A stretch of 64,000 nucleotides of DNA from a virus. Its lineage: Duplodnaviria > Heunggongvirae > Uroviricota > Caudoviricetes. Below, piece after piece: positions 1,040-55,498 of this stretch. The stretch lies in the IMG/VR virus record IMGVR_UViG_3300009537_004349; one strand, 5' to 3'. The notes beneath the pieces were generated by a model, which was not told the origin of the DNA, ran no database searches, and saw nothing but the letters and a program-made list of their open reading frames with translations. The translations under genes and the position numbers were made by a program. Numbering within the stretch: position 1 is the stretch's first letter; every line of letters starts with the position of its first letter.

Positions 1040-1248
1040 TTCACTTTCCCACTGTATGGTGGTGGGTTGAGAGCGTATTCATTTAAGGCGTTATTGATGC
1101 TCTCACTTGCAAATCTATCCGCCCCAGTAGTTTTCTTTCCTGTTATGCACACATAACCTCTATAGTTGATTAAGGTTATGTCCCAGGTTAGGAATATTTT
1201 GTACAAGCTATGTACGGTCGAGTGTTCCATTTCTTTTCTCGTTGGCAC
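1033..1248 (-). CDS. hypothetical protein
   Basis: 71-aa ORF between tRNA and upstream gene; no motif. Confidence 0.3.
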   Translation of the reverse strand: MPTRKEMEHSTVHSLYKIFLTWDITLINYRGYVCITGKKTTGADRFASESINNALNEYALNPPPYSGKVNW

Positions 1249-2794: not shown

Positions 2795-2814
2795 TTACGT
2801 ATCTTTCTTTCGTT

Positions 2815-17697: not shown

Positions 17698-17774
17698 TGG
17701 TAGGCCCGGAGGGACTCGAACCCCCAACCTGGCCGTTATGAGCGGCTCGCTCTGACCAATTGAGCTACGGGCCT
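17698..17774 (-). tRNA. tRNA-Met (anticodon CAU; elongator-type or Ile2 precursor)
   Basis: AGGCCCG acceptor, TAGCTCAATTGG D-arm, loop CTCATAA, GGTTCGAGTCC, CCA. Confidence 0.7.
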
Positions 17775-19955: not shown

Positions 19956-20165
19956 TTACTTAACCTCTCTTGCCACCCAGTTATGATTCTTCCACTGGTT
20001 AAATTGCTCTTTAGTCACAGCTATAAGAGTGGCACCGTCACAATTTCTGGCTGTGATAAACTCTTCGTCTCCATTACTCTTAACTCTGTAGAAAGCATAA
20101 AGCGGCGTACTATCAATTCCGGTATAGCCATACCTAGATTCGTCTAATACAACCTTAACGCTCAT
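19956..20165 (-). CDS. hypothetical protein
   Basis: 69-aa ORF. Confidence 0.45.
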   Translation of the reverse strand: MSVKVVLDESRYGYTGIDSTPLYAFYRVKSNGDEEFITARNCDGATLIAVTKEQFNQWKNHNWVAREVK

Positions 20166-20766
20166 CAGCCATTAGCTTTTCTACAATGTTATACACGCCA
20201 GGATTCAATTCCTTAATCCTGGGCACTAACTCGTGCCTGATATAGTTCCTCTTGTACTTTGTGTCTACATTAGATGGGTCTTCTACCCAGTTATAACCAT
20301 GCCAGTTCATGTAGTTTTCGATATCTTCCCGCTTCCACAAACGGAATGGCCGAATACAATTTTTGTTACTGTATTTAATGGTACCAGGATATCCTCGAAC
20401 CATCGTACACATGATGTACTCTTCCAAGCAATCATCGAAGTTGTGGGCAAGAATAACCGGCTCTGAAAAACTATGAAAGAAGTTGTACCTCTTCTCTCTC
20501 CACCAAGCCTCCCTAGATTCCCCCTTTGGTGGCTCCTCTTCTAAGATGTGCCACTTGCAAGTAACGCCGTAGTATTCCTTCATAGACAGCACAAAATCAT
20601 ATGCCTCGTCAGAATACAGCCCTGTCTTGTGGTTTACATGTAGCATTCCCAAGAGATTATCTTTCCTTGACTCTTTGTAGAGCCAATGAAATGCTGCCAT
20701 GCTATCGATACCACCACTCACAGCAACCCAATACTTTTTAGGCAATGGATGTGTCAGTCTGAACAT
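20155..20766 (-). CDS. tilS: tRNA(Ile)-lysidine synthetase-like PP-loop ATPase (TilS N-terminal domain)
   Basis: VAVSGGIDS PP-loop, HVNHKTG and AHNFDDCLE motifs as in the TilS catalytic domain. Confidence 0.65.
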   Translation of the reverse strand: MFRLTHPLPKKYWVAVSGGIDSMAAFHWLYKESRKDNLLGMLHVNHKTGLYSDEAYDFVLSMKEYYGVTCKWHILEEEPPKGESREAWWREKRYNFFHSFSEPVILAHNFDDCLEEYIMCTMVRGYPGTIKYSNKNCIRPFRLWKREDIENYMNWHGYNWVEDPSNVDTKYKRNYIRHELVPRIKELNPGVYNIVEKLMADER

Positions 20767-23927: not shown

Positions 23928-24302
23928 TCATTTTGTCATTTGGGCTCGTGCTTTGATGTATTCCATTAAAGGGATAACATTAACATGCTTTTTGAACCAC
24001 TCGTTTCTTAGTCTCAAGACCTCTTGAGAAAGCTCGGCAGATGGCTCTACTCCTAATTGCTTGGCTACATTCACGGGATTTAATCCACTGTATTTGCTCA
24101 CTGCCCATAAGGGATGAACAATCCTACGTGCCATTGTGGTAGCCCAGCTAAGACTATTCCAGAAAAACTTACCTCGCATTTGTACGGGCTTGCCATCTAC
24201 CAGAACAATGTATCTGCCCTCAGGATTAAACTTTGAGAAGTTATATCGGGCAGCCTTGTTAATAAGTTTCTTTACTTCCAGTTCTTGTTCTTCAGTAAGC
24301 AT
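23928..24302 (-). CDS. hypothetical protein
   Basis: 124-aa ORF. Confidence 0.5.
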   Translation of the reverse strand: MLTEEQELEVKKLINKAARYNFSKFNPEGRYIVLVDGKPVQMRGKFFWNSLSWATTMARRIVHPLWAVSKYSGLNPVNVAKQLGVEPSAELSQEVLRLRNEWFKKHVNVIPLMEYIKARAQMTK

Positions 24303-24485
24303 CTATCTTATCACCTTAAGTTTTCTTTCCTCTGTCAGCTCTATCTTTCTTTCGTCTAGTAAATCCCACATATACTTGCGCGCTTCATAAGGCAAGCCAT
24401 CCTTAAAACCCATAACTCTTGCCAATTCCGTTGGACATAATCCATCTGGGTTTAGGCTAAGAATATATAGAATTACCCCTCTCAT
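24303..24485 (-). CDS. hypothetical protein
   Basis: 60-aa ORF. Confidence 0.4.
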   Translation of the reverse strand: MRGVILYILSLNPDGLCPTELARVMGFKDGLPYEARKYMWDLLDERKIELTEERKLKVIR

Positions 24486-24832: not shown

Positions 24833-25240
24833 ATCTCGGAGTAAGCCTGTAAGCTGGATTCTGTCTAGTGCAATCATTCATCTAGGCTTACCATTACTGA
24901 TAAGCTCAAGCCTCTTACCCGCCAGCACATCGAGCCAATGTATAGCTGGTCTATTTTGAGTTGCAACACCTAGAGTTTAGCCGTTTCACCCTTGTTACTT
25001 ACCTGGGGCAGTACCTTCCACAACTAGTGAGAGCGGCCATCCCCTTATAGGCTCTCAGGGTTTTATTGGTTGTAACAAGACTCGTCTCTGTTCCACTAGT
25101 CCTCACCTCACGGTGGATGGGCGTTACCCACTAGGTTGCTCTGTGTTGTCCAGACTTTCCTCTGCATAGCCACAAGCTAAAGTTTTCAGTGGCGGCGGAC
25201 GCAAGCTCCTTGTATGCAGCGATTGCACGGATTACTCCGT
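24833..25240 (-). ncRNA. rnpB: RNase P RNA, bacterial type-A-like (rnpB)
   Basis: Minus strand carries conserved RNase P blocks in order: AGGAAAGTCTGGAC, GGGTAACGCC, ACAGAGA...AACC, GATGGCC, CAGGTAAG...GGGTGAAA, GGCTAAACTC, CAAAATAG, GGGTAAGAGGCTTGAGC, CCTAGATGAATGA, ACAGAATCCAGCTTA. P1 pairing CGGAGTAA (25232-25239) with TTACTCCG (24837-24844). No ORF at or above the 60-aa track cutoff across this 365-bp gap. Confidence 0.75.
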
Positions 25241-33601: not shown

Positions 33602-33617
33602 CCAATGCCTCTTTCGT

Positions 33618-44006: not shown

Positions 44007-44362
44007 CTGTGTCCAAAATCACTGGTGCTGATGTATCTTCCCGGCTCAACTTTGCGGGTAGTACAAATGATAGCAAGAACAATATGTAATTCCTCATGAA
44101 GGGACATTGCCTTTTCATATTGTTCCTCAGAGTAGTGTTCTTCTCCCTCGTGGTCCTTGAATGGCTTCTCTCCAATGGCTCGACATATATCTCTGAGGAT
44201 ATCACTATTCCCATATGGGCGCTTGAGATTCATCCCAGCTGCTCCATCATACATACTGTCATCGTGCTCCCAGCATGCTTCTTCTAGCAGCTTGAGATGC
44301 TCTTCCTTTACATCGAATACGGTATTTTTATTGTAATGCAACAAGGGTCTTACTCTTCCCAT
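43991..44362 (-). CDS. hypothetical protein
   Basis: 123-aa ORF. Confidence 0.5.
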   Translation of the reverse strand: MGRVRPLLHYNKNTVFDVKEEHLKLLEEACWEHDDSMYDGAAGMNLKRPYGNSDILRDICRAIGEKPFKDHEGEEHYSEEQYEKAMSLHEELHIVLAIICTTRKVEPGRYISTSDFGHSWKPL

Positions 44363-44934
44363 AATGGTTCTCCTGGCAGTCTTTTAGCCGCTCTTTCAAT
44401 AGCCTGAGCAACTGTGCCCAGGTTGTCGTTAGATACTCTCACAACCTGCCCCGGATAACGCTCATCGAACCCTTCATTGTACGGGTAAGCAGGCATAAGA
44501 ACAAGGCCGCGAGGACGAAACTTTAACCAAGCCTCACAATATTCTGGCCAATCATCAAATAGAATCTTGCCATATACAATGCCCTTATTCTCGGTGATAG
44601 TAACAGGGGTACCGGGTAAGTGCTCCCTACACCATTCGACCTTCTCAGTCCATGCACCTGTAGTTTTGTAGGGGCCTTTGGTGAGAACATGGATATTGAA
44701 TCCAGCAGACTGTAGTAACTTAACCACAGTCATACCAAGCTCGATAGTCTCAAGATTCCGCCAGAAACCATCCTGGCGCTTAATCATATCAACTAGAGCA
44801 TCATATTTATCATCGTGCATACTTACAGATTCGCCCAGCAATCGCTTAAGCTCAGCCTCTACAGCCTTTCTGTAGTCACACAAAGTGCCATCCATATCTA
44901 CCAGTGCAATCATTGCTATTCCTCTACAGGGCAA
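44350..44934 (-). CDS. HAD-superfamily hydrolase, 5'(3')-deoxyribonucleotidase-like
   Basis: IALVDMDGTLCDY (DxDGT) and C-terminal ILFDDW. Confidence 0.55.
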   Translation of the reverse strand: MPCRGIAMIALVDMDGTLCDYRKAVEAELKRLLGESVSMHDDKYDALVDMIKRQDGFWRNLETIELGMTVVKLLQSAGFNIHVLTKGPYKTTGAWTEKVEWCREHLPGTPVTITENKGIVYGKILFDDWPEYCEAWLKFRPRGLVLMPAYPYNEGFDERYPGQVVRVSNDNLGTVAQAIERAAKRLPGEPLWEE

Positions 44935-45206: not shown

Positions 45207-45231
45207 TTTATTTTTATTGGGCGGTTAGCCG

Positions 45232-45308
45232 CGCCCCGGGTGGGATTCGAACCCACGACATGCAGGGTTTTAGAGACCCCAGCTCTAACCAGACTGAGCT
45301 ACCGGGGC
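45232..45308 (-). tRNA. amber-suppressor-type tRNA (anticodon CUA), isotype unknown; no encoded CCA
   Basis: Reverse complement GCCCCGG-TA-GCTC-AGTCTGGTTA-GAGC-T-GGGGT-CTCTAAA-ACCCT-GCATGTC-GTGGG-TTCGAAT-CCCAC-CCGGGGC-G. Anticodon loop is 7 nt with U33, C34-U35-A36 and A37. Discriminator is followed by CGG rather than CCA. Flanks extend the acceptor complementarity to 9-10 bp. Confidence 0.6.
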
Positions 45309-45323
45309 GCGAGCCTACCTTGC

Positions 45324-46579: not shown

Positions 46580-46836
46580 GGTTTATTTCCTTTGCTTATC
46601 TGAAACCAGTGCTGCTCCATTTTCTTTAGAAACTCTTTGTCAAATGAAACCAGCTTATCTGGCAACACAGAATCTATACCACACTTAGGGCACAGAGCGG
46701 TTTGACCACCATCGCACCACTCATATATCTCAGTGGGGCTATAGATACGGCAGCAACAGAAGCAGCCACAGGTTTCACTCTCCATGACTGCTTCTAAATG
46801 ATAGCTGCTGTGTTCGTGTGCTTCAATGATATCCAT
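46576..46836 (-). CDS. hypothetical Cys-rich zinc-ribbon-like protein
   Basis: 86 aa; CGCFCCC...CDGG...CPKC. Confidence 0.45.
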   Translation of the reverse strand: MDIIEAHEHSSYHLEAVMESETCGCFCCCRIYSPTEIYEWCDGGQTALCPKCGIDSVLPDKLVSFDKEFLKKMEQHWFQISKGNKP

Positions 46837-47942
46837 TAGATGATGTCCACGTGATTGATGTCCAACCAGTCTTCCAGCGCCTTGATATTCATCTCGGCTA
46901 GATACTGCCGTACACTCTGCACCTTTCCATGCTTGAGGGAAAACAACGCCCCGGAGTACTTGGAGTCCTTGACTTTCATAGCGAACTGCTTCTTGTCATC
47001 GATATCCTTAACCATCTCATACATACCCTCGATGATACCGCGAGTATAGTCAAACTTTCCTCGCACTTCGGCATACAAAGATGCATACTCGGGATAATCC
47101 TCTAGATAAGAAGAAAACTCTTCGTTCTCATTATCCAGCATGACCTTGAGAATCTCTCTCGCAGGCACAGTGGACATCTTATCCTTGAAGCGAGATAGCG
47201 CTACATACTGCGGGGTCTTAACCTTCACACGATTATAGTTCCCATCGGCGACTACAAACCCTTCGCTCTCTAGAGGGTCCAGCTTCTTAGACGCCTCCAT
47301 AATGTCTTCCCAAGTCTCCAGCGAATGAATCTCCACGCACTCCCAGCCATTATGGTGGGCCACTACGATGGGGTTTACTTCGCTAAAGTCGGACAAATTA
47401 CGAGCGCCGTGTAGAACGATACGATTACGTGCATGCTTAACAACTACCCTGTTATAGGGAGTCATCAACTCAAACATATAGCACATGTTCTTGTTATCTG
47501 GCAAGTCATACTCTAGTTGCTCCCAAACCTTCCAAAACAGGTCGGCGAAAGACAATTCGGAGTTTAGAACATTACCAGCAGCATCAGGCATACCCGAGCT
47601 GGACACATGCCACTTGTTGTCGTAATGGTACAGCGTCATGAGAGAGCCATCTAGTTTCTCATAGACACGAGCGGAGCCCCAGTCTAAGTCCGCTGCGTTA
47701 GATTCTCCATAGTTGAAGAACTTATCGTAGGGATAAGATACAACGGCCCAATCATTTGCCTCATCTAAGATGATTCCTCGTGCCTGCTGTACGATTGGAG
47801 AGTTCATGGGCGAATCAATCTGATTGTACTTAAACAACACCAGATTATCATACACACCGTGGCGCTTTGCTGTTACGGCAAAGCGATTTTCCAACTCCTT
47901 GACTCCATGGTCACGGATGAAGTTCCTTAGTTGCTGGGCCAT
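46836..47942 (-). CDS. rnlA: RNA ligase, T4 Rnl1 family
   Basis: ARGIILDE...YPYDKFFNYGE and nucleotidyltransferase motif I VYEKLDGSLM (KxDG) aligned to T4 Rnl1 RGIMFEMDG...PMEKFFNLNE / TKEDGSLV. Confidence 0.7.
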   Translation of the reverse strand: MAQQLRNFIRDHGVKELENRFAVTAKRHGVYDNLVLFKYNQIDSPMNSPIVQQARGIILDEANDWAVVSYPYDKFFNYGESNAADLDWGSARVYEKLDGSLMTLYHYDNKWHVSSSGMPDAAGNVLNSELSFADLFWKVWEQLEYDLPDNKNMCYMFELMTPYNRVVVKHARNRIVLHGARNLSDFSEVNPIVVAHHNGWECVEIHSLETWEDIMEASKKLDPLESEGFVVADGNYNRVKVKTPQYVALSRFKDKMSTVPAREILKVMLDNENEEFSSYLEDYPEYASLYAEVRGKFDYTRGIIEGMYEMVKDIDDKKQFAMKVKDSKYSGALFSLKHGKVQSVRQYLAEMNIKALEDWLDINHVDII

Positions 47943-48631: not shown

Positions 48632-48707
48632 TGGTCCCGAGTGCTGGGTTCGAACCAGCGACCTTTCGAATATGAGTCGAATGCTCTACCAACTGAGCTA
48701 ACTCGGG
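48632..48707 (-). tRNA. tRNA with anticodon CAU (Met or lysidine-modified Ile2), C1-G72 acceptor
   Basis: CCCGAGT acceptor, TAGCTCAGTTGG D-arm, anticodon arm TTCGA-CTCATAT-TCGAA, GGTTCGAACCC, CCA. Confidence 0.65.
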
Positions 48708-50200: not shown

Positions 50201-50237
50201 TATCAGTGGGATGCTCTGCCAGCTGAGCTACGGGCCT
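50162..50237 (-). tRNA. tRNA-Ile (anticodon GAU)
   Basis: AGGCCCG acceptor, TAGCTCAGCTGG D-arm, anticodon arm TCCCA-CTGATAA-TGGGA, GGTTCAAATCC, CCA. Confidence 0.7.
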
Positions 50238-50787
50238 ATTTTCTGACGGGCATCCAGTAGTCCTCTTCGCTGCCTAGTGTGCTAATCCTAACAACACCAT
50301 AACTCTCTTGAAGTTTTCCAATGGCATGCACAACTGATGAAGTTTTAAGCAGGTCTCCTCTACTGTGCCTAAGCTCACTGCCGTATGCCGTGACTTCCAG
50401 GCCCATCTTAGCTCTATTTTGAATGCGTACCTTGTAACTAGCTGTAACACAATCATAGTGTATAACTTGCACAGTGATACCATTCGGAAGCTGATATGTT
50501 TCGTGTCCTAACAGGTCGATATCACTAGAGCGCTCGATTACAGGATTGGCTCGTAACTCTAGCTTGCTGAAAAACTCTTGTCCAGCAATCCATATTGGTT
50601 CTGTCCAAAGCTTTTGCCACCAAGTGAGCTTTGTAGCATCTAATATTCTACCTATAAGGCATATCTCACAGTACTTGTATCCAGGAACAGGCCAACTATG
50701 GTAATCTACACCCAGCTCGCTGCAATCCAGACAGACTTTGGGCGTCCCCTTGAGATATTTTTTCTCTGTTATCAGAGGAATCTCCAT
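50236..50787 (-). CDS. hypothetical protein
   Basis: 183-aa ORF. Confidence 0.5.
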   Translation of the reverse strand: MEIPLITEKKYLKGTPKVCLDCSELGVDYHSWPVPGYKYCEICLIGRILDATKLTWWQKLWTEPIWIAGQEFFSKLELRANPVIERSSDIDLLGHETYQLPNGITVQVIHYDCVTASYKVRIQNRAKMGLEVTAYGSELRHSRGDLLKTSSVVHAIGKLQESYGVVRISTLGSEEDYWMPVRK

Positions 50788-50790
50788 ACC

Positions 50791-50973
50791 CTATTCCTTT
50801 TTTACATTCACCGTACTTTTGAACAATCCTCCTAGTATCAATGCTGCTAGCCACGTCGAAAATGTATACGGAATAGCAAGCACAGGGAAAAGTGTATTGA
50901 GGGACCAGATAGTGAGCAACGGACCCAGGGTGAGTAGAGCAATGACAAATAGAATAAGCAATAAAGCTGGCAT
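50791..50973 (-). CDS. hypothetical small membrane protein
   Basis: 60 aa, two hydrophobic helices. Confidence 0.4.
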   Translation of the reverse strand: MPALLLILFVIALLTLGPLLTIWSLNTLFPVLAIPYTFSTWLAALILGGLFKSTVNVKKE

Positions 50974-51964: not shown

Positions 51965-52320
51965 TTCCCACCCGAGTAGAGCTTCTTAACTACGTCGGAC
52001 AATACCGATTCAGTGAGCATCTCTGCTACCTGACCCTTGTCTTCGTAGTCTTCTATCTGCACGTTGAGTTTGCCTTCTGGTGTAATAGTGATGTGCATGT
52101 TTAGAGCATCACCTATACGCATCCACCACGTACTATCTCCCATATGCTCTATGTGGAGCCAGTTGTCAACTACTAATTCATCAAAGAAGGACTTGCCATC
52201 GCCTCGAACATCCCTAAAGGCAGACTTCTCTCTATCACTTGGAGCATTAAACCTCCACTCGTAGCCTGCTGGGTATGTGTACTTAGGTTCGCCCATTGCT
52301 GTTCTCCAGTGTTGGGACAA
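51961..52320 (-). CDS. hypothetical protein
   Basis: 119-aa ORF. Confidence 0.5.
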   Translation of the reverse strand: MSQHWRTAMGEPKYTYPAGYEWRFNAPSDREKSAFRDVRGDGKSFFDELVVDNWLHIEHMGDSTWWMRIGDALNMHITITPEGKLNVQIEDYEDKGQVAEMLTESVLSDVVKKLYSGGK

Positions 52321-53200
52321 CTACATTCAAAGGCTTACCAATACTAATGCGTGCCTCTGAACCTCGGCAGAACTCATGCTCTTCCCAAGAATCAATACTG
52401 AGCAATCCCTCATTATCATTCAAAGAGTACAGCGTGACTTCTTCCCCTGGCGCAATATACTCAGCTGTAGGAGCTGATACGCCATTAGGGGTGGTACTAT
52501 ACATTTCAGTGACGGCAAAGCCACAGAACTTATCTCCAGGGCTCCAAGGCGGACGACTACTGGATGAGGCATACCATCCTGTACTGCCAGCTCCAGTGGC
52601 AAAGATGATACCAGAGCACTTCTGCTCATACTCTTTACCCTTGTACACTATGACATGGCGAGACATATGATTCCTTTGTCGCTCGCCAAAGAAATACTCG
52701 CTGGTAGCAGGAGTCACTTTTTGCCCATCAATAGTAGCTTCCAGTCTAGTCCAGGGCTCAATTACGAAATCTTCAAAGTCAATGGCTTCAACTAGATTAA
52801 AGATATCTTCTTCATCACCAATAGACCATCTAGTCAGACAACCTACACTGCGCTCAGGGTCAGAATTAATACCCAGGATAGGCAGGTCTCCAATTAGATG
52901 ACTAACACATGTGAAGCTGTTGTCGCCACCAAGAACTAGTACCATGTTGATATCTGACCGAAGCTCTATGCCCTTCAGCCCCCGAGCAGCCTGCAATGAA
53001 TCCATCATGATTAGTTCAGAGGATGGTAATGTGTTGGCCAAACATTCTCTAACGTTCACTTGTTTCTCGTGACTACACAGAATGGCATCTAAGTTAGCAT
53101 GTTCTTTGCTATACTTAGCCACAAGTTGTTCGTGAGAAAGACCAAAACATTTTCTCTCCCACTCATACTTAGAATGCTTCGCAACAACTAATATGTTCAT
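52283..53200 (-). CDS. NAD kinase-like protein (ATP-NAD/DAG-kinase fold)
   Basis: VLVLGGDNSF...ILGINSDPERSVGCLT vs NadK VVVGGDGSML...VIGINRGNLGFLT; IIFATGAGSTGWYASS vs LIISTPTGSTAYSLSAG; GGDG variant GGDN. Confidence 0.6.
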   Translation of the reverse strand: MNILVVAKHSKYEWERKCFGLSHEQLVAKYSKEHANLDAILCSHEKQVNVRECLANTLPSSELIMMDSLQAARGLKGIELRSDINMVLVLGGDNSFTCVSHLIGDLPILGINSDPERSVGCLTRWSIGDEEDIFNLVEAIDFEDFVIEPWTRLEATIDGQKVTPATSEYFFGERQRNHMSRHVIVYKGKEYEQKCSGIIFATGAGSTGWYASSSSRPPWSPGDKFCGFAVTEMYSTTPNGVSAPTAEYIAPGEEVTLYSLNDNEGLLSIDSWEEHEFCRGSEARISIGKPLNVVVPTLENSNGRT

Positions 53201-53379
53201 TCGACTTCTCTATCTAACTGGTCTCTGATAAGCTGGCGAACTAATTCATCGAACGTCACACCAAGCTCATCGGCTAATTCCTCTAGCTCCTGAACGAGTT
53301 CTTCTTCAAGCTCGATTTCGACCCCAATTAATTCTTGATCGTCATCATCATCCGACATCTTGCTCACTCTTTTTGCCAT
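53197..53379 (-). CDS. hypothetical highly acidic small protein
   Basis: 60 aa, D/E-rich. Confidence 0.4.
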   Translation of the reverse strand: MAKRVSKMSDDDDDQELIGVEIELEEELVQELEELADELGVTFDELVRQLIRDQLDREVE

Positions 53380-53710
53380 ACTTCTTCTTGAGGCGCAGAT
53401 ACTCCTTTAGCTCTGCCTGCTCAATACGCTGGCGTTCCATCGTCTCACGCTGTTCGCGCTCTTGACGCTCTGTATCAGTCTCATCTCGCGAGCCGGAAAG
53501 CAGCAATACTCCCGCGCCCTTCTTCTGTACAGCATACACTTTGAGTTCACTAAAGGGAGAAGTGACATGCTTGGCTTTCAGCTCCTGCAACTTCTCAATA
53601 AAGCTATCGAGTGTAACTGCATCTTGACCTTCAGCAGCGACGACCTCGATATCTTCGCTGACCTTCTTCACTTCAACTTCTGTTTCTTCACTCATTGTGC
53701 AATTCCTCAA
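53348..53710 (-). CDS. hypothetical charged protein
   Basis: 120-aa ORF. Confidence 0.5.
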   Translation of the reverse strand: MRNCTMSEETEVEVKKVSEDIEVVAAEGQDAVTLDSFIEKLQELKAKHVTSPFSELKVYAVQKKGAGVLLLSGSRDETDTERQEREQRETMERQRIEQAELKEYLRLKKKYGKKSEQDVG

Positions 53711-53978
53711 TTGATTTTCTTATGAATTCTTTTTTCTCACGCTCTTCCTCTGTAAGAACGTTATCGAACCACTCTTTAGATTCCTGAGAATACTTACCTC
53801 TCAGGTTCCACCTATCGTATCCAAAGTTATGGTTATATCCGTACTCTCTTTTCTCTAAGTACGATTCAAACCATACCCAGCGCTTATCTTCACAATGCTT
53901 TGGTAAAAAGGCAAAGACCTTGCACCAAGCAACATCTCCGAACCTGGGATTAGGCGTCTTGCCCGTGCCCCACCTCAT
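53688..53978 (-). CDS. hypothetical protein
   Basis: 96-aa ORF. Confidence 0.45.
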   Translation of the reverse strand: MRWGTGKTPNPRFGDVAWCKVFAFLPKHCEDKRWVWFESYLEKREYGYNHNFGYDRWNLRGKYSQESKEWFDNVLTEEEREKKEFIRKSIEELHNE

Positions 53979-54454
53979 CGCTGGAAACGTCCTGCCATTC
54001 GCTTGATAGCCTCAAGTGGAACACCATGCACATTGCGTTCAGCGTACAATCTGAGGCTTTCTTCATCAAAGCTACCAACAGTATGCTGGACAACCCGGTA
54101 ACCGTTGCGCTTGGCCATCTTCTTATAAGGGGCCATTTCCTTTTCCATAGTATTGGTGTTGTCGATGATAACTACAGTAACACCCTTCTGCATAGCTGTG
54201 TCCGCTGTGTGCTTAGAATAACCGTGAGCGTTGCCCAGCTTATCCCTGTCGAAGTGATAGTTTCCGTCTTCGTCAGTAAAGTAATCATCTGCGGAGCATT
54301 TGACTAAACTGAGCCCCAGCGTCTTGCAGGCTTCCATTACTGCCTTTACATACGTCGACTTTCCGCTCCCCGGAACCCCTCTCATCAGCAACAGCGTCTT
54401 TTGCAGACTGGACTTCTCGTCCTCCAACATCTTCAAAATGTCTTTTGAACTCAT
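53975..54454 (-). CDS. polynucleotide 5'-kinase-like P-loop protein (T4 Pnk kinase-domain homologue); true start may be internal
   Basis: GVPGSGKSTYVKAV...DDYF and KGVTVVIIDNTN...GYRVVQHTV...VPLEAIKRM parallel T4 Pnk GCPGSGKSTWAREF...RDDYR and KGVIISDTNLN...GWKVEHKVF...VPIDVLRSM; 170-bp overlap with the upstream ORF. Confidence 0.6.
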   Translation of the reverse strand: MSSKDILKMLEDEKSSLQKTLLLMRGVPGSGKSTYVKAVMEACKTLGLSLVKCSADDYFTDEDGNYHFDRDKLGNAHGYSKHTADTAMQKGVTVVIIDNTNTMEKEMAPYKKMAKRNGYRVVQHTVGSFDEESLRLYAERNVHGVPLEAIKRMAGRFQR

Positions 54455-54791
54455 AATTCATCTCCAATGCCACTTTCATTGTAGACTTGGCAATATCTTC
54501 TTCCTTGCCCTCAATTTCTTCGCCATTTCTCAGCTTAGAACGGACAACGGAGTTAAGAGCTTCTTTAGCAAACTCTCTTATATTATTCCTATCACTATCT
54601 AGATGGTGTATACGTTCATACAAATCTTTGGCACGAGCTATAGCTTCCTTCTCATTCATGGCATAAACCATCATGCCAAAATCAATGTTGGGCAGGGAGT
54701 CGATAGTAGCACACCCTAAAGCTGTACCCCAAGATTCATCAGAGTGGAGACTTCTATAGACATAGAACGTCTCTAACTTACTAGAATCCAC
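54285..54791 (-). CDS. hypothetical protein; C-terminal frame overlaps the Pnk-like gene
   Basis: 168-aa ORF; overlap leaves its true 3' end uncertain. Confidence 0.4.
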   Translation of the reverse strand: MDSSKLETFYVYRSLHSDESWGTALGCATIDSLPNIDFGMMVYAMNEKEAIARAKDLYERIHHLDSDRNNIREFAKEALNSVVRSKLRNGEEIEGKEEDIAKSTMKVALEMNYEFKRHFEDVGGREVQSAKDAVADERGSGERKVDVCKGSNGSLQDAGAQFSQMLRR

Positions 54792-54802
54792 AGGAGGCTC
54801 CT

Positions 54803-55498
54803 TTACTTGCGAGTTACCGCTCGTCTTGCTCGATTCTCCTCAGCAACTTCAGCCATGACTTCATCACTCGTAACTACTTGTACACCAGCGTCTTGCATTT
54901 CTTGTACAGCTTTGTCAGAGTCAGCAGGATCCAAATTAACCCCGCGACAGCCATCCAGAACAAGCCTTGTGTCAAACCCCAAAGCCACTGAATCAAGGGC
55001 TGTAAACTTGACGCAATAGTCCGTAGCAAGCCCCATAACATAAACAGTAGTAACGCCCCTGCCCCTGAGAAAATCTCCCAGGCCCGTCGAATACCTGACT
55101 TCTTCTCCATTGATAATAGCCTTGTTGTCAAAAAATGCCGAATAAGAATCAACAGAGACTCTCATTCCTTTGCGAAAGAGTGCTGTCAGATGCGTCACAT
55201 CAAGATTCGAATGAAGTTCGGAACCCTGAGTTCCCCAAACACAATGGTCTGGCCACATGACCTGCGGCACACCATTCAACTCTCCCAATGACATTACCTC
55301 TGCACCTTCGTTGTTAGATGCAAAGCTCCTGTGTGCAGGTGGATGATAGTCCTGAGTAGCTACGACAAGGGCCTCATCGCCTAAGAAACCCCACTGAAGT
55401 TTATTAGCGACAGCCATTACCTCATCGCCTGTATTAACTGCTAATGCCCCGCCAGGACAAAAATCATTCTGAAGGTCTACTAAGATTAACGCTTTCAT
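54803..55498 (-). CDS. pncA: nicotinamidase/pyrazinamidase (isochorismatase family)
   Basis: MKALILVDLQNDFCPGGALAV..., WPDHCV, DSYSAFFDN, MGLATDYCVKFTALD align along the length of E. coli PncA including the catalytic Cys. Confidence 0.85.
   Translation of the reverse strand: MKALILVDLQNDFCPGGALAVNTGDEVMAVANKLQWGFLGDEALVVATQDYHPPAHRSFASNNEGAEVMSLGELNGVPQVMWPDHCVWGTQGSELHSNLDVTHLTALFRKGMRVSVDSYSAFFDNKAIINGEEVRYSTGLGDFLRGRGVTTVYVMGLATDYCVKFTALDSVALGFDTRLVLDGCRGVNLDPADSDKAVQEMQDAGVQVVTSDEVMAEVAEENRARRAVTRK

Follow-up and report, generated by a model that had tools for sequence, protein, structure and literature searches.

A 64,000-nucleotide (nt) stretch of DNA from a Caudoviricetes virus (IMG/VR record IMGVR_UViG_3300009537_004349; the whole stretch is referred to here as the window) carries on its minus strand a real, well-formed transfer RNA (tRNA) gene with the amber-suppressor-type anticodon CUA, which would decode UAG. 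On comparison of sequences, the balance is even for a functional phage amber suppressor that is retained at one genomic position in a clade of giant uncultured phages and serves UAG codons elsewhere in their genomes. A functional UAG-decoding tRNA that would require the addition of CCA is considered probable, and its use on in-frame UAG codons in genes elsewhere in the genome is considered possible with some doubt.

ARAGORN called a tRNA with anticodon CTA at 45231..45308 (minus strand), one of 27 tRNA genes in the window, all of which lie on that strand. Against Rfam family RF00005, 45232..45308 (minus strand) matched along the whole model at 61.0 bits, the gathering score being 29, and zero non-standard pairs were flagged. 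The score is in the middle of the range for the window tRNAs (33.7-73.1 bits), and the minimum-free-energy structure of the suppressor folded alone was the cloverleaf. The full sequence reads GCCCCGG-UA-GCUC-AGUCUGGUUA-GAGC-U-GGGGU-CUCUAAA-ACCCU-GCAUGUC-GUGGG-UUCGAAU-CCCAC-CCGGGGC-G, comprising the acceptor stem (GCCCCGG/CCGGGGC) with U8 and A9 after its 5' strand, the D arm with a 10-nt loop that contains GG, the anticodon arm with a 5-bp stem, U33, CUA and A37, a variable loop of 7 nt (GCAUGUC; the sole structural oddity), the T arm and discriminator G73. The bases of the usual tertiary interactions are complete (U8, A14, G18G19, U33, A37 and GUUCGAAUC). With four helices, the consensus bases, a T loop of the form GTTCRANYC and a score above threshold the gene belongs to RF00005, and with U33, CUA at 34-36 and then a purine within a loop of 7 nt, its anticodon is of the amber-suppressor kind. 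No alternative fold giving a sense anticodon was found, and a UCU reading would place C at position 33. The genuine CUA tRNA of the original prediction was thus borne out, with ARAGORN and Rfam agreeing on a CUA cloverleaf with standard pairing throughout.

The label given to the gene by ARAGORN, pyrrolysine tRNA (tRNA-Pyl), is a consequence of the anticodon only. Hallmarks of tRNA-Pyl are a short D loop, a 3-nt variable loop, a 6-bp anticodon stem and the lack of G18G19 and of the T-psi-C consensus, together with pylS and pylBCD genes. This identity was rejected on the 10-nt D loop with GG, the 7-nt variable loop, the 5-bp anticodon stem and the canonical T loop GTTCGAATC, and no Pyl genes were present among the Pfam hits of the window. 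A selenocysteine reading was rejected on structure and context, and an attachment-site tRNA fragment was rejected since the gene is full-length and no integrase family was found among the window proteins. Cellular tRNAs that match it in the 3' half are Arg or Asn sense tRNAs whose 5' halves differ.

Orthologs and amino-acid identity

Orthologs of the suppressor were reached through homologs of the neighboring NT5C-like open reading frame (ORF), which led to syntenic metagenomic loci (numbered with the prefix L; Table 1). A CUA tRNA was present upstream of NT5C in all four groups of ortholog loci (NT5C 63-88% identical), and the gene order in L049-51/L166 is Rnl1, three ORFs, tRNA-CUA, one ORF and NT5C. 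Across five distinct orthologs, G1-C72, C2-G71, C4-G69, C5-G68, G73, the T stem, the CUA anticodon and U33 are invariant. By hand reading of compensatory changes, pair 3:70 changes from C-G to U-A, pair 6:67 is seen as G-C, U.G, U-A or C-G, pair 7:66 changes from G-C to A-U, and anticodon-stem pairs 28:42, 29:41 and 31:39 covary with pairing kept. In a broader set of CUA tRNAs with a shared D arm, 98.9% of cells were paired, 14 of 21 pairs had double changes, and 0 of 500 shuffles matched the observed covariation. Ortholog Rfam scores were 59-69 bits. The fixed locus, the stem covariation and these scores together argue for purifying selection on the suppressor, which would be neither chance nor dead sequence.

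A second CUA tRNA was observed downstream of NT5C at L047 10765..10840 and L049 10555..10630, with a different acceptor stem and A73 or U73. This second, unrelated gene occurs in two lineages (L047 and L049-51), and one phage may hold two amber suppressors with possibly different amino-acid identity. Conservation of the first suppressor and the presence of a second in some relatives suggest that UAG decoding matters to these phages.

More distant relatives (L033-35, L053, L055 and L167) had other tRNAs or none at the place of the suppressor, and in those reached through Rnl1 (L033-L035) dispersed tRNAs were present with no CUA tRNA nearby. A metagenome pattern scan returned similar CUA tRNAs (65/77 and 64/77 identical), some of them CCA-less, with no clear orthologs among them. 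In IMG/VR, the 5' half of the tRNA gave 0 hits and no close relative was found; searches with the anticodon arm or the 3' half returned unrelated CUA, Lys and short "Leu" tRNAs, and loci reached through Rnl1 (at most 46% identity) had no CUA tRNA. On IMG/VR viral contigs, tRNAs of 77 nt were observed with Leu anticodons (CAA or UAG) and no long variable arm, which is atypical for bacterial tRNA-Leu (Table 1).

A recent origin of the suppressor as a paralog of a window tRNA was rejected, since identity to any of these is at most 69% and is 52% to the two Gln tRNAs. The closest sense look-alikes, in phage loci and in cellular genomes, are tRNA-Arg(UCU or CCU), with 25 of 47 pattern hits in cellular genomes being of this kind; the cellular look-alikes are mostly tRNA-Arg(UCU). 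The suppressor itself is without A20 and C35, the determinants of arginyl-tRNA synthetase (ArgRS). It is a class I tRNA with no long variable arm and so would not be a Tyr, Ser or Leu tRNA of the bacterial type. The original prediction described its anticodon loop as supF-type; the loop is indeed CUCUAAA, and the same loop would be found in any suppressor with C32-U33-CUA-A37-A38, which makes it uninformative on tyrosine identity. The A36-A37-A38 stretch would be a target of MiaA, which aids UAG decoding. In Escherichia coli, C34-U35 with G73 attracts glutaminyl-tRNA synthetase (GlnRS), and tRNAs with a CUA anticodon were reportedly charged there by GlnRS or lysyl-tRNA synthetase (LysRS) in 1990 work by Normanly and colleagues. 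Charging by host GlnRS is inferred to be most likely, and by LysRS less so, as GlnRS is favored by C34-U35 and the invariant G73. Of TAG reassignments in phages, only that to Gln has been reported (bioRxiv 10.1101/2021.08.26.457843).

The 3' end and maturation of the suppressor

The suppressor was originally singled out as the only window tRNA without an encoded CCA, and this held: CCA follows the discriminator in 26 of the 26 other window tRNA genes, and G73 of the suppressor is followed instead by CGG. Among 61 distinct tRNAs called by ARAGORN in the window and the clade loci, 58 end in CCA, and the three that do not are the window suppressor, L046 (CGG) and L052 (CTT), all of them orthologs. 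The replacing triplets differ (CGG and CUU), so on these sequences CCA was lost at least twice independently among the suppressor orthologs; the random chance of two losses both falling within this group of 5 in 61 is roughly estimated at ~0.007.

The flanks of the gene are also atypical. The 15-nt leader has a GC content of 0.67, the richest of the 27 (other leaders, mean 0.33 and maximum 0.53). As originally noted, the flanks extend the complementarity of the acceptor stem: C-1:G73, G-2:C74 and C-3:G75 lengthen the helix to 10 contiguous pairs, and three such contiguous in-register pairs have a chance of ~0.02-0.05 by our estimate. RNAfold predicted ~8 further leader-trailer pairs, with bulges. 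The first 11 nt of the trailer would pair with the leader or, with G73 (45232), form the hairpin GCGG-CUAA-CCGC (45221..45232). Leader and trailer of L046 are nearly the same and were also paired by RNAfold, although two substitutions shift the register. The suppressor trailer had neither a CGA motif nor a U-run terminator, no convincing local promoter or terminator consensus was found beside the gene, and neither leader nor trailer recurs within the 64-kb window as a repeat or mobile-element flank would.

In the trailers of the 26 other tRNAs (e.g. 1231..1242, 2803..2814 and 33606..33617), CGA occurs within 8 nt after CCA in 17 (background 7.5%). The consensus is approximately CCA-aCGAAAG, two more carry ACGGAAAG, and the CGA motif was also observed behind tRNAs of relatives L049-L053. 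A signal for processing or for the start of translation is possible.

Among its tRNA genes the window also encodes a bacterial class-A RNase P RNA (Table 1). This RNA has large insertions, is without equivalents of 43 model positions of the specificity domain, and appears to keep GGGU in an internal loop. We take this GGGU to be the L15 motif that pairs with RCCA in E. coli M1 RNA.

On the maturation pathway proposed here, the suppressor would be transcribed with its neighbors in the long same-strand gene array, RNase P would cleave its 5' end, and RNase Z/BN or exonucleases would remove its 3' trailer. With CGG in place of CCA, trailer removal and the addition of CCA by tRNA nucleotidyltransferase would both be needed before charging. 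A host synthetase (GlnRS most likely) would then aminoacylate the tRNA, and the charged suppressor would insert its amino acid at UAG, the likely use being translation of phage genes with in-frame UAG outside the window, for example late structural or lysis genes, or low-level readthrough. Given the lack of CCA, the leader-trailer pairing and the absence of the shared trailer motif, maturation would be expected to be slower than that of the 26 other tRNAs, or to depend on different enzymes, and this would limit or delay suppressor activity. If the GGGU is the L15 motif, a CCA-less, leader-paired precursor would also be expected to be a poorer substrate for RNase P.

Relatives in the clade encode a ~510-amino-acid (aa) tRNA nucleotidyltransferase (PF01743 and PF12627). 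At L166 10001..11527 the gene lies between genes for nicotinamide adenine dinucleotide (NAD) salvage and for a GT4 glycosyltransferase, and the equivalent stretch of the window, 52283..55498, is without one.

CCA-less tRNA genes that require 3' trimming and CCA addition, with an effect on a suppressor, have a counterpart in phage T4, in which such genes include that of the tRNA-Ser of the psu1+ amber suppressor and need host tRNA nucleotidyltransferase and RNase BN. T4 differs in that its suppressor was derived from a sense tRNA by mutation in the laboratory and that lack of CCA extends to several of its tRNAs; here the wild-type gene is the suppressor, which lacks CCA after the discriminator as the T4 genes do and is the only one of 27 in the window to do so. 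That some T4 tRNAs depend on the nucleotidyltransferase of the host is stated by the title of a paper of Deutscher, Foulds and McClain (1974), which PMC6468291 lists among its references.

UAG usage and competing explanations

In phages, suppressor tRNAs are known to go along with stop-codon recoding, in which late and lysis genes take TAG as Gln (bioRxiv 10.1101/2021.08.26.457843; PMC13037316). Recoding is concentrated in those genes, and replication and tRNA regions remain in the standard code (bioRxiv 10.1101/2021.08.26.457843). ORF coverage of the window minus strand was 87.6% in the standard code (code 11) and 85.6% with TAG as sense; coverage of both strands was 0.872 with either code. 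Stops of the 48 ORFs of at least 150 aa were TAA 21, TGA 17 and TAG 10. The 394-aa Band-7 ORF stops at TAG with a TAA one codon on, and back-up stops behind TAG-ending ORFs were no closer than those behind others (Mann-Whitney p = 0.23). Seven in-frame TAG candidates proved to be gene junctions (TAG followed by ATG) or to be without coding signal on one side. By comparison, the unrelated CUA-tRNA viral loci L003, L009 and L012 rose in coverage from ~0.45-0.55 to ~0.73-0.76 with TAG as sense, a recoding signature which indicates that the coverage test is able to detect recoding. These results apply to the 64-kb window and to ~185 kb of accessory regions of relatives, which are partly duplicate loci; no structural genes were found in any clade locus sampled. 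In the window, UAG reads as an ordinary stop, and the ORFs there are consistent with the standard code, as had been proposed from the sequence. The further proposal that the genome as a whole is not recoded stands for the window and the ~185 kb of relatives, its scope being limited to accessory regions. Within these regions, neither the in-frame TAG nor the gain in coding density of a code 15 genome was found.

A number of these and other observations weigh against a functional suppressor used elsewhere in the genome. TAG is not depleted as a stop (TAA 56, TGA 50 and TAG 23, or 18%, of 129 window ORFs), and with TAG a normal stop an efficient suppressor would extend many phage proteins. This argues against genome-wide reassignment and would call for temporal separation or low efficiency. 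The 64-kb window yielded no in-frame TAG flanked on either side by coding signal, and the loci of relatives no convincing one. No CCA-adding enzyme, release factor (including release factor 2, RF2) or aminoacyl-tRNA synthetase was found among the window protein matches, and no nucleotidyltransferase from the 291.7-kb source contig was among the nucleotidyltransferase matches. The charged identity of the tRNA is a matter of inference, and its body is most like tRNA-Arg(UCU). Of 5 ortholog lineages 3 have lost CCA, and L049a and L052 have lost the G18G19/T-loop consensus, which could also mean weaker selection. The leader-trailer duplex, at -8.9 kcal/mol, was compared with composition-preserving shuffles of leader and trailer alone (-6.6 +/- 2.4 kcal/mol), 18% of which were as good, and the helix is absent in L052 and so is not clade-wide. 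This predicted helix is lineage-specific, unproven and suggestive only. The suggestion in the original prediction that the gene is processed differently is strengthened by the suppressor-specific loss of CCA, the atypical flanks and the GGGU that the RNase P RNA appears to keep.

Some tRNAs of the clade, at L049 9632..9706, L052 9909..9982 and L053 8907..8984, were observed to lack D-loop GG and T-loop UUC together. Their T loops are UUAAAAU or UAAAAAU, and as Rfam scores stay at 59-69 bits the elbow contact appears remodeled.

The foregoing would fit a decaying or neutral passenger with little or no role in translation, in which the loss of CCA was a first step of pseudogenization. CCA is missing only within this ortholog group, the D- and T-loop consensus has been lost in L049a and L052, every sampled region is free of in-frame TAG with TAG stops at normal frequency, and there is no CUA tRNA near Rnl1 or NT5C in L033-35, L053 and L167. 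Such a passenger is nonetheless judged unlikely: the locus is retained although the adjacent NT5C diverges to 63% identity, the stems are kept by compensatory changes around an invariant anticodon and U33, a second CUA tRNA was gained or kept in two lineages, and CCA-less tRNA genes are functional in many bacteria and in T4.

An elaboration of the functional reading would have maturation act as a gate, set by the lack of CCA and the leader-trailer helix, so that the suppressor would turn active only once CCA-adding and 3'-processing activities of phage or host are at hand. This would time a code switch at the level of tRNA processing, with UAG a stop in early and accessory genes, such as those of the window, and sense in late genes. 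This is improbable on present sequences; if true, the repeated and suppressor-specific loss of CCA would be a signature of selection.

It is more improbable still that the suppressor serves programmed readthrough of a few TAG-ending phage genes, giving C-terminally extended isoforms with no internal TAG required. Two same-frame pairs of ORFs are split only by a TAG (50791..50973 followed by 50236..50787, and 24303..24485 followed by 23928..24302), and a slowly matured suppressor would suit partial readthrough. Both junctions, however, look like ordinary stop-start junctions (TAG, with ATG within 0-3 nt and a purine-rich stretch before it); same-frame neighbors were about equally frequent after TAA or TGA (6/106) and after TAG (2/23), and no homolog evidence of fused proteins was obtained.

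The original prediction favored action on host messages, by readthrough of host UAG stops that would disturb or reprogram the host. A standard-code window in which no phage target was found speaks for this indirectly, but neither a host nor a target within one can be named, TAG-ending genes of the phage itself (18%) would be hit too, and the literature ties phage suppressors to their own recoded genes (bioRxiv 10.1101/2021.08.26.457843), so we regard it as very unlikely. A non-ribosomal role as aminoacyl donor or decoy, in which the stop anticodon bars normal decoding, is scarcely credible: the conserved acceptor stem, G73 and T stem would also fit another enzyme and nothing more direct speaks for it, U33, CUA and A37 are conserved exactly as decoding requires, and no candidate transferase lies nearby.

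Surroundings of the gene and significance

The window is an array of small ORFs, essentially all on the minus strand, at 42-45% GC. Its 27 tRNA genes are dispersed singly, with a spacing of up to ~6 kb (mostly 1-3 kb), and often abut the next start codon, a layout similar to that seen where tRNA genes abound in Xanthomonas phage XacN1 (PMC5852040) and Sinorhizobium phage Phosso. Other genes encode NAD salvage proteins (NAPRTase, NadE and a PncA-like isochorismatase), NADAR, NUDIX and HAD-type RNA-repair domains, a GT4 glycosyltransferase, M23 and M50 peptidases and a TilS-like PP-loop protein, and several Pfam-less proteins match phage-only PHROG families (e.g. phrog_14850 at 6e-59). A database protein encoded on a 291,701-bp JGI contig matches the window Rnl1 at 100% identity, and relatives of Rnl1 lie on contigs of 177-481 kb. 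The gene content, the phage-only PHROG matches and the large contigs of relatives fit an uncultured jumbo phage, with the window as its accessory or tRNA region. Comparison of the 3-kb neighborhood of the suppressor with phage GenBank records gave tRNA-level matches only and no close cultured relative; the best protein identities in those records were at most 35% for Rnl1 and at most 39% for NT5C. The 96-aa ORF downstream of the suppressor has a lipoprotein-signal-like N-terminus, with what we take by our own inspection to be a lipobox. Coordinates are collected in Table 1.

Table 1. Positions of the features discussed, in the window unless a locus is named
Feature	Location	Strand	Remarks
CUA-anticodon (amber-suppressor type) tRNA gene	45232..45308	-	77 nt, G1 to discriminator G73; ARAGORN, Rfam, minimum-free-energy fold, orthologs
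Anticodon CUA in 7-nt loop CUCUAAA	45271..45273	-	Plus-strand letters TAG; sequence and cmscan alignment
CGG at the site of CCA in the 26 other tRNA genes	45229..45231	-	Closest relative L046 likewise G73-CGG
5' leader GCAAGGUAGGCUCGC	45309..45323	-	15 nt, separating the TAA of the preceding ORF from the tRNA; predicted to pair with the trailer
3' trailer CGGCUAACCGCCCAAUAAAAAUAAA	45207..45231	-	Extends to the ATG of the next ORF
Upstream ORF, 111 aa	45324..45659	-	No family match; TAA end 15 nt before the tRNA
Downstream ORF, 96 aa	44916..45206	-	Starts 25 nt after G73; TAG end
NT5C-like 5'-nucleotidase ORF	44350..44934	-	Pfam PF06941; synteny anchor, ~0.3 kb downstream of the tRNA
T4 Rnl1-type RNA ligase ORF	46836..47942	-	Second synteny anchor
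RNase P RNA, bacterial class A, full-length	24834..25238	-	Rfam 209.5 bits, model positions 1-367
Ortholog L046			NT5C 88%; CUA tRNA 74/77 identical to that of the window; G73-CGG, no CCA
Ortholog L047/L048			NT5C 72%; GCCCCUA...UAGGGGC-G; CCA
Ortholog L049-51/L166			NT5C 64%; GCCCCCG...CGGGGGC-G; CCA
Ortholog L052			NT5C 63%; GCUCCCG...CGGGAGC-G; CUU, no CCA
77-nt tRNAs with Leu anticodons	L026 6303..6379; L027 2218..2294; L028 563..639; L032 1182..1258
Other RNase P RNAs	L137 1111..1452; L147 6074..6431; L160 3401..3763; L163 1571..1912; L127 4462..4786

The TilS-like ORF (20155..20766, minus strand; PF01171, 6e-30) was observed together with two tRNA(CAU) genes (17698..17774 and 48632..48707), one of which may be a lysidine-modified tRNA-Ile; a PF01171 PP-loop ORF was also present in relatives L033, L034 and L035. 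The RNase P RNA of the window had no blastn match in phage GenBank records, and no description of a phage-encoded RNase P RNA was found in the literature. On other large IMG/VR viral contigs (101-369 kb), RNase P class-A RNA genes (209-268 bits) were observed amid densely packed tRNA genes, and by these sequence matches phage-borne RNase P RNA is recurrent in public data. A GOLLD RNA (212 bits; L151 5070..5488) was observed inside the tRNA array of a 385-kb IMG/VR viral contig.

Phage amber suppressors are already well documented, jumbo phages being among their carriers, and now and then they are met in phages with the standard code. Lak megaphages, crAss-like phages and recoded jumbo phages (Borges et al., bioRxiv 10.1101/2021.08.26.457843; PMC13037316) are alike to the phage studied here in having a CUA tRNA in a large, tRNA-rich genome with a standard-code region, and in presumed charging by a host synthetase. 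Unlike them, it has no in-frame TAG in the sampled sequence, a GC content of 43% that is not very low, no RF2 gene in the window and TAG as the stop of 18% of ORFs. Sinorhizobium jumbo phage Phosso (PV764938) likewise has a tRNA(CUA), dispersed tRNAs, small same-strand ORFs and the standard code; its tRNA(CUA) differs in encoding CCA and shares 59/77 positions, and its proteins are distant hits only. A standard-code phage with a suppressor tRNA has been reported as a possible precursor of recoding (bioRxiv 10.1101/2021.08.26.457843). With the E. coli suppressors supE, supF and Su7/supU the gene has the anticodon loop C32-U33-CUA-A37-A38 in common; unlike them, it is no one-step derivative of any tRNA of the window. 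Modestly new are that a giant-phage clade keeps a suppressor at one locus while TAG is a normal stop in the sampled sequence, and that within the window and the clade sample repeated loss of the encoded CCA is confined to the suppressor.

Of the ways in which phages reassign stop codons, suppressor tRNAs are the best known, and what is at stake is their role in standard-code phages and how the dose and timing of their potentially harmful activity are set. Gene calling for these genomes should be run both with and without TAG as a stop. Should the loss of CCA be adaptive, code switching would be under control at the step of 3'-end maturation; otherwise the clade would still be a compact test bed for whether suppressors precede, accompany or are independent of recoding.

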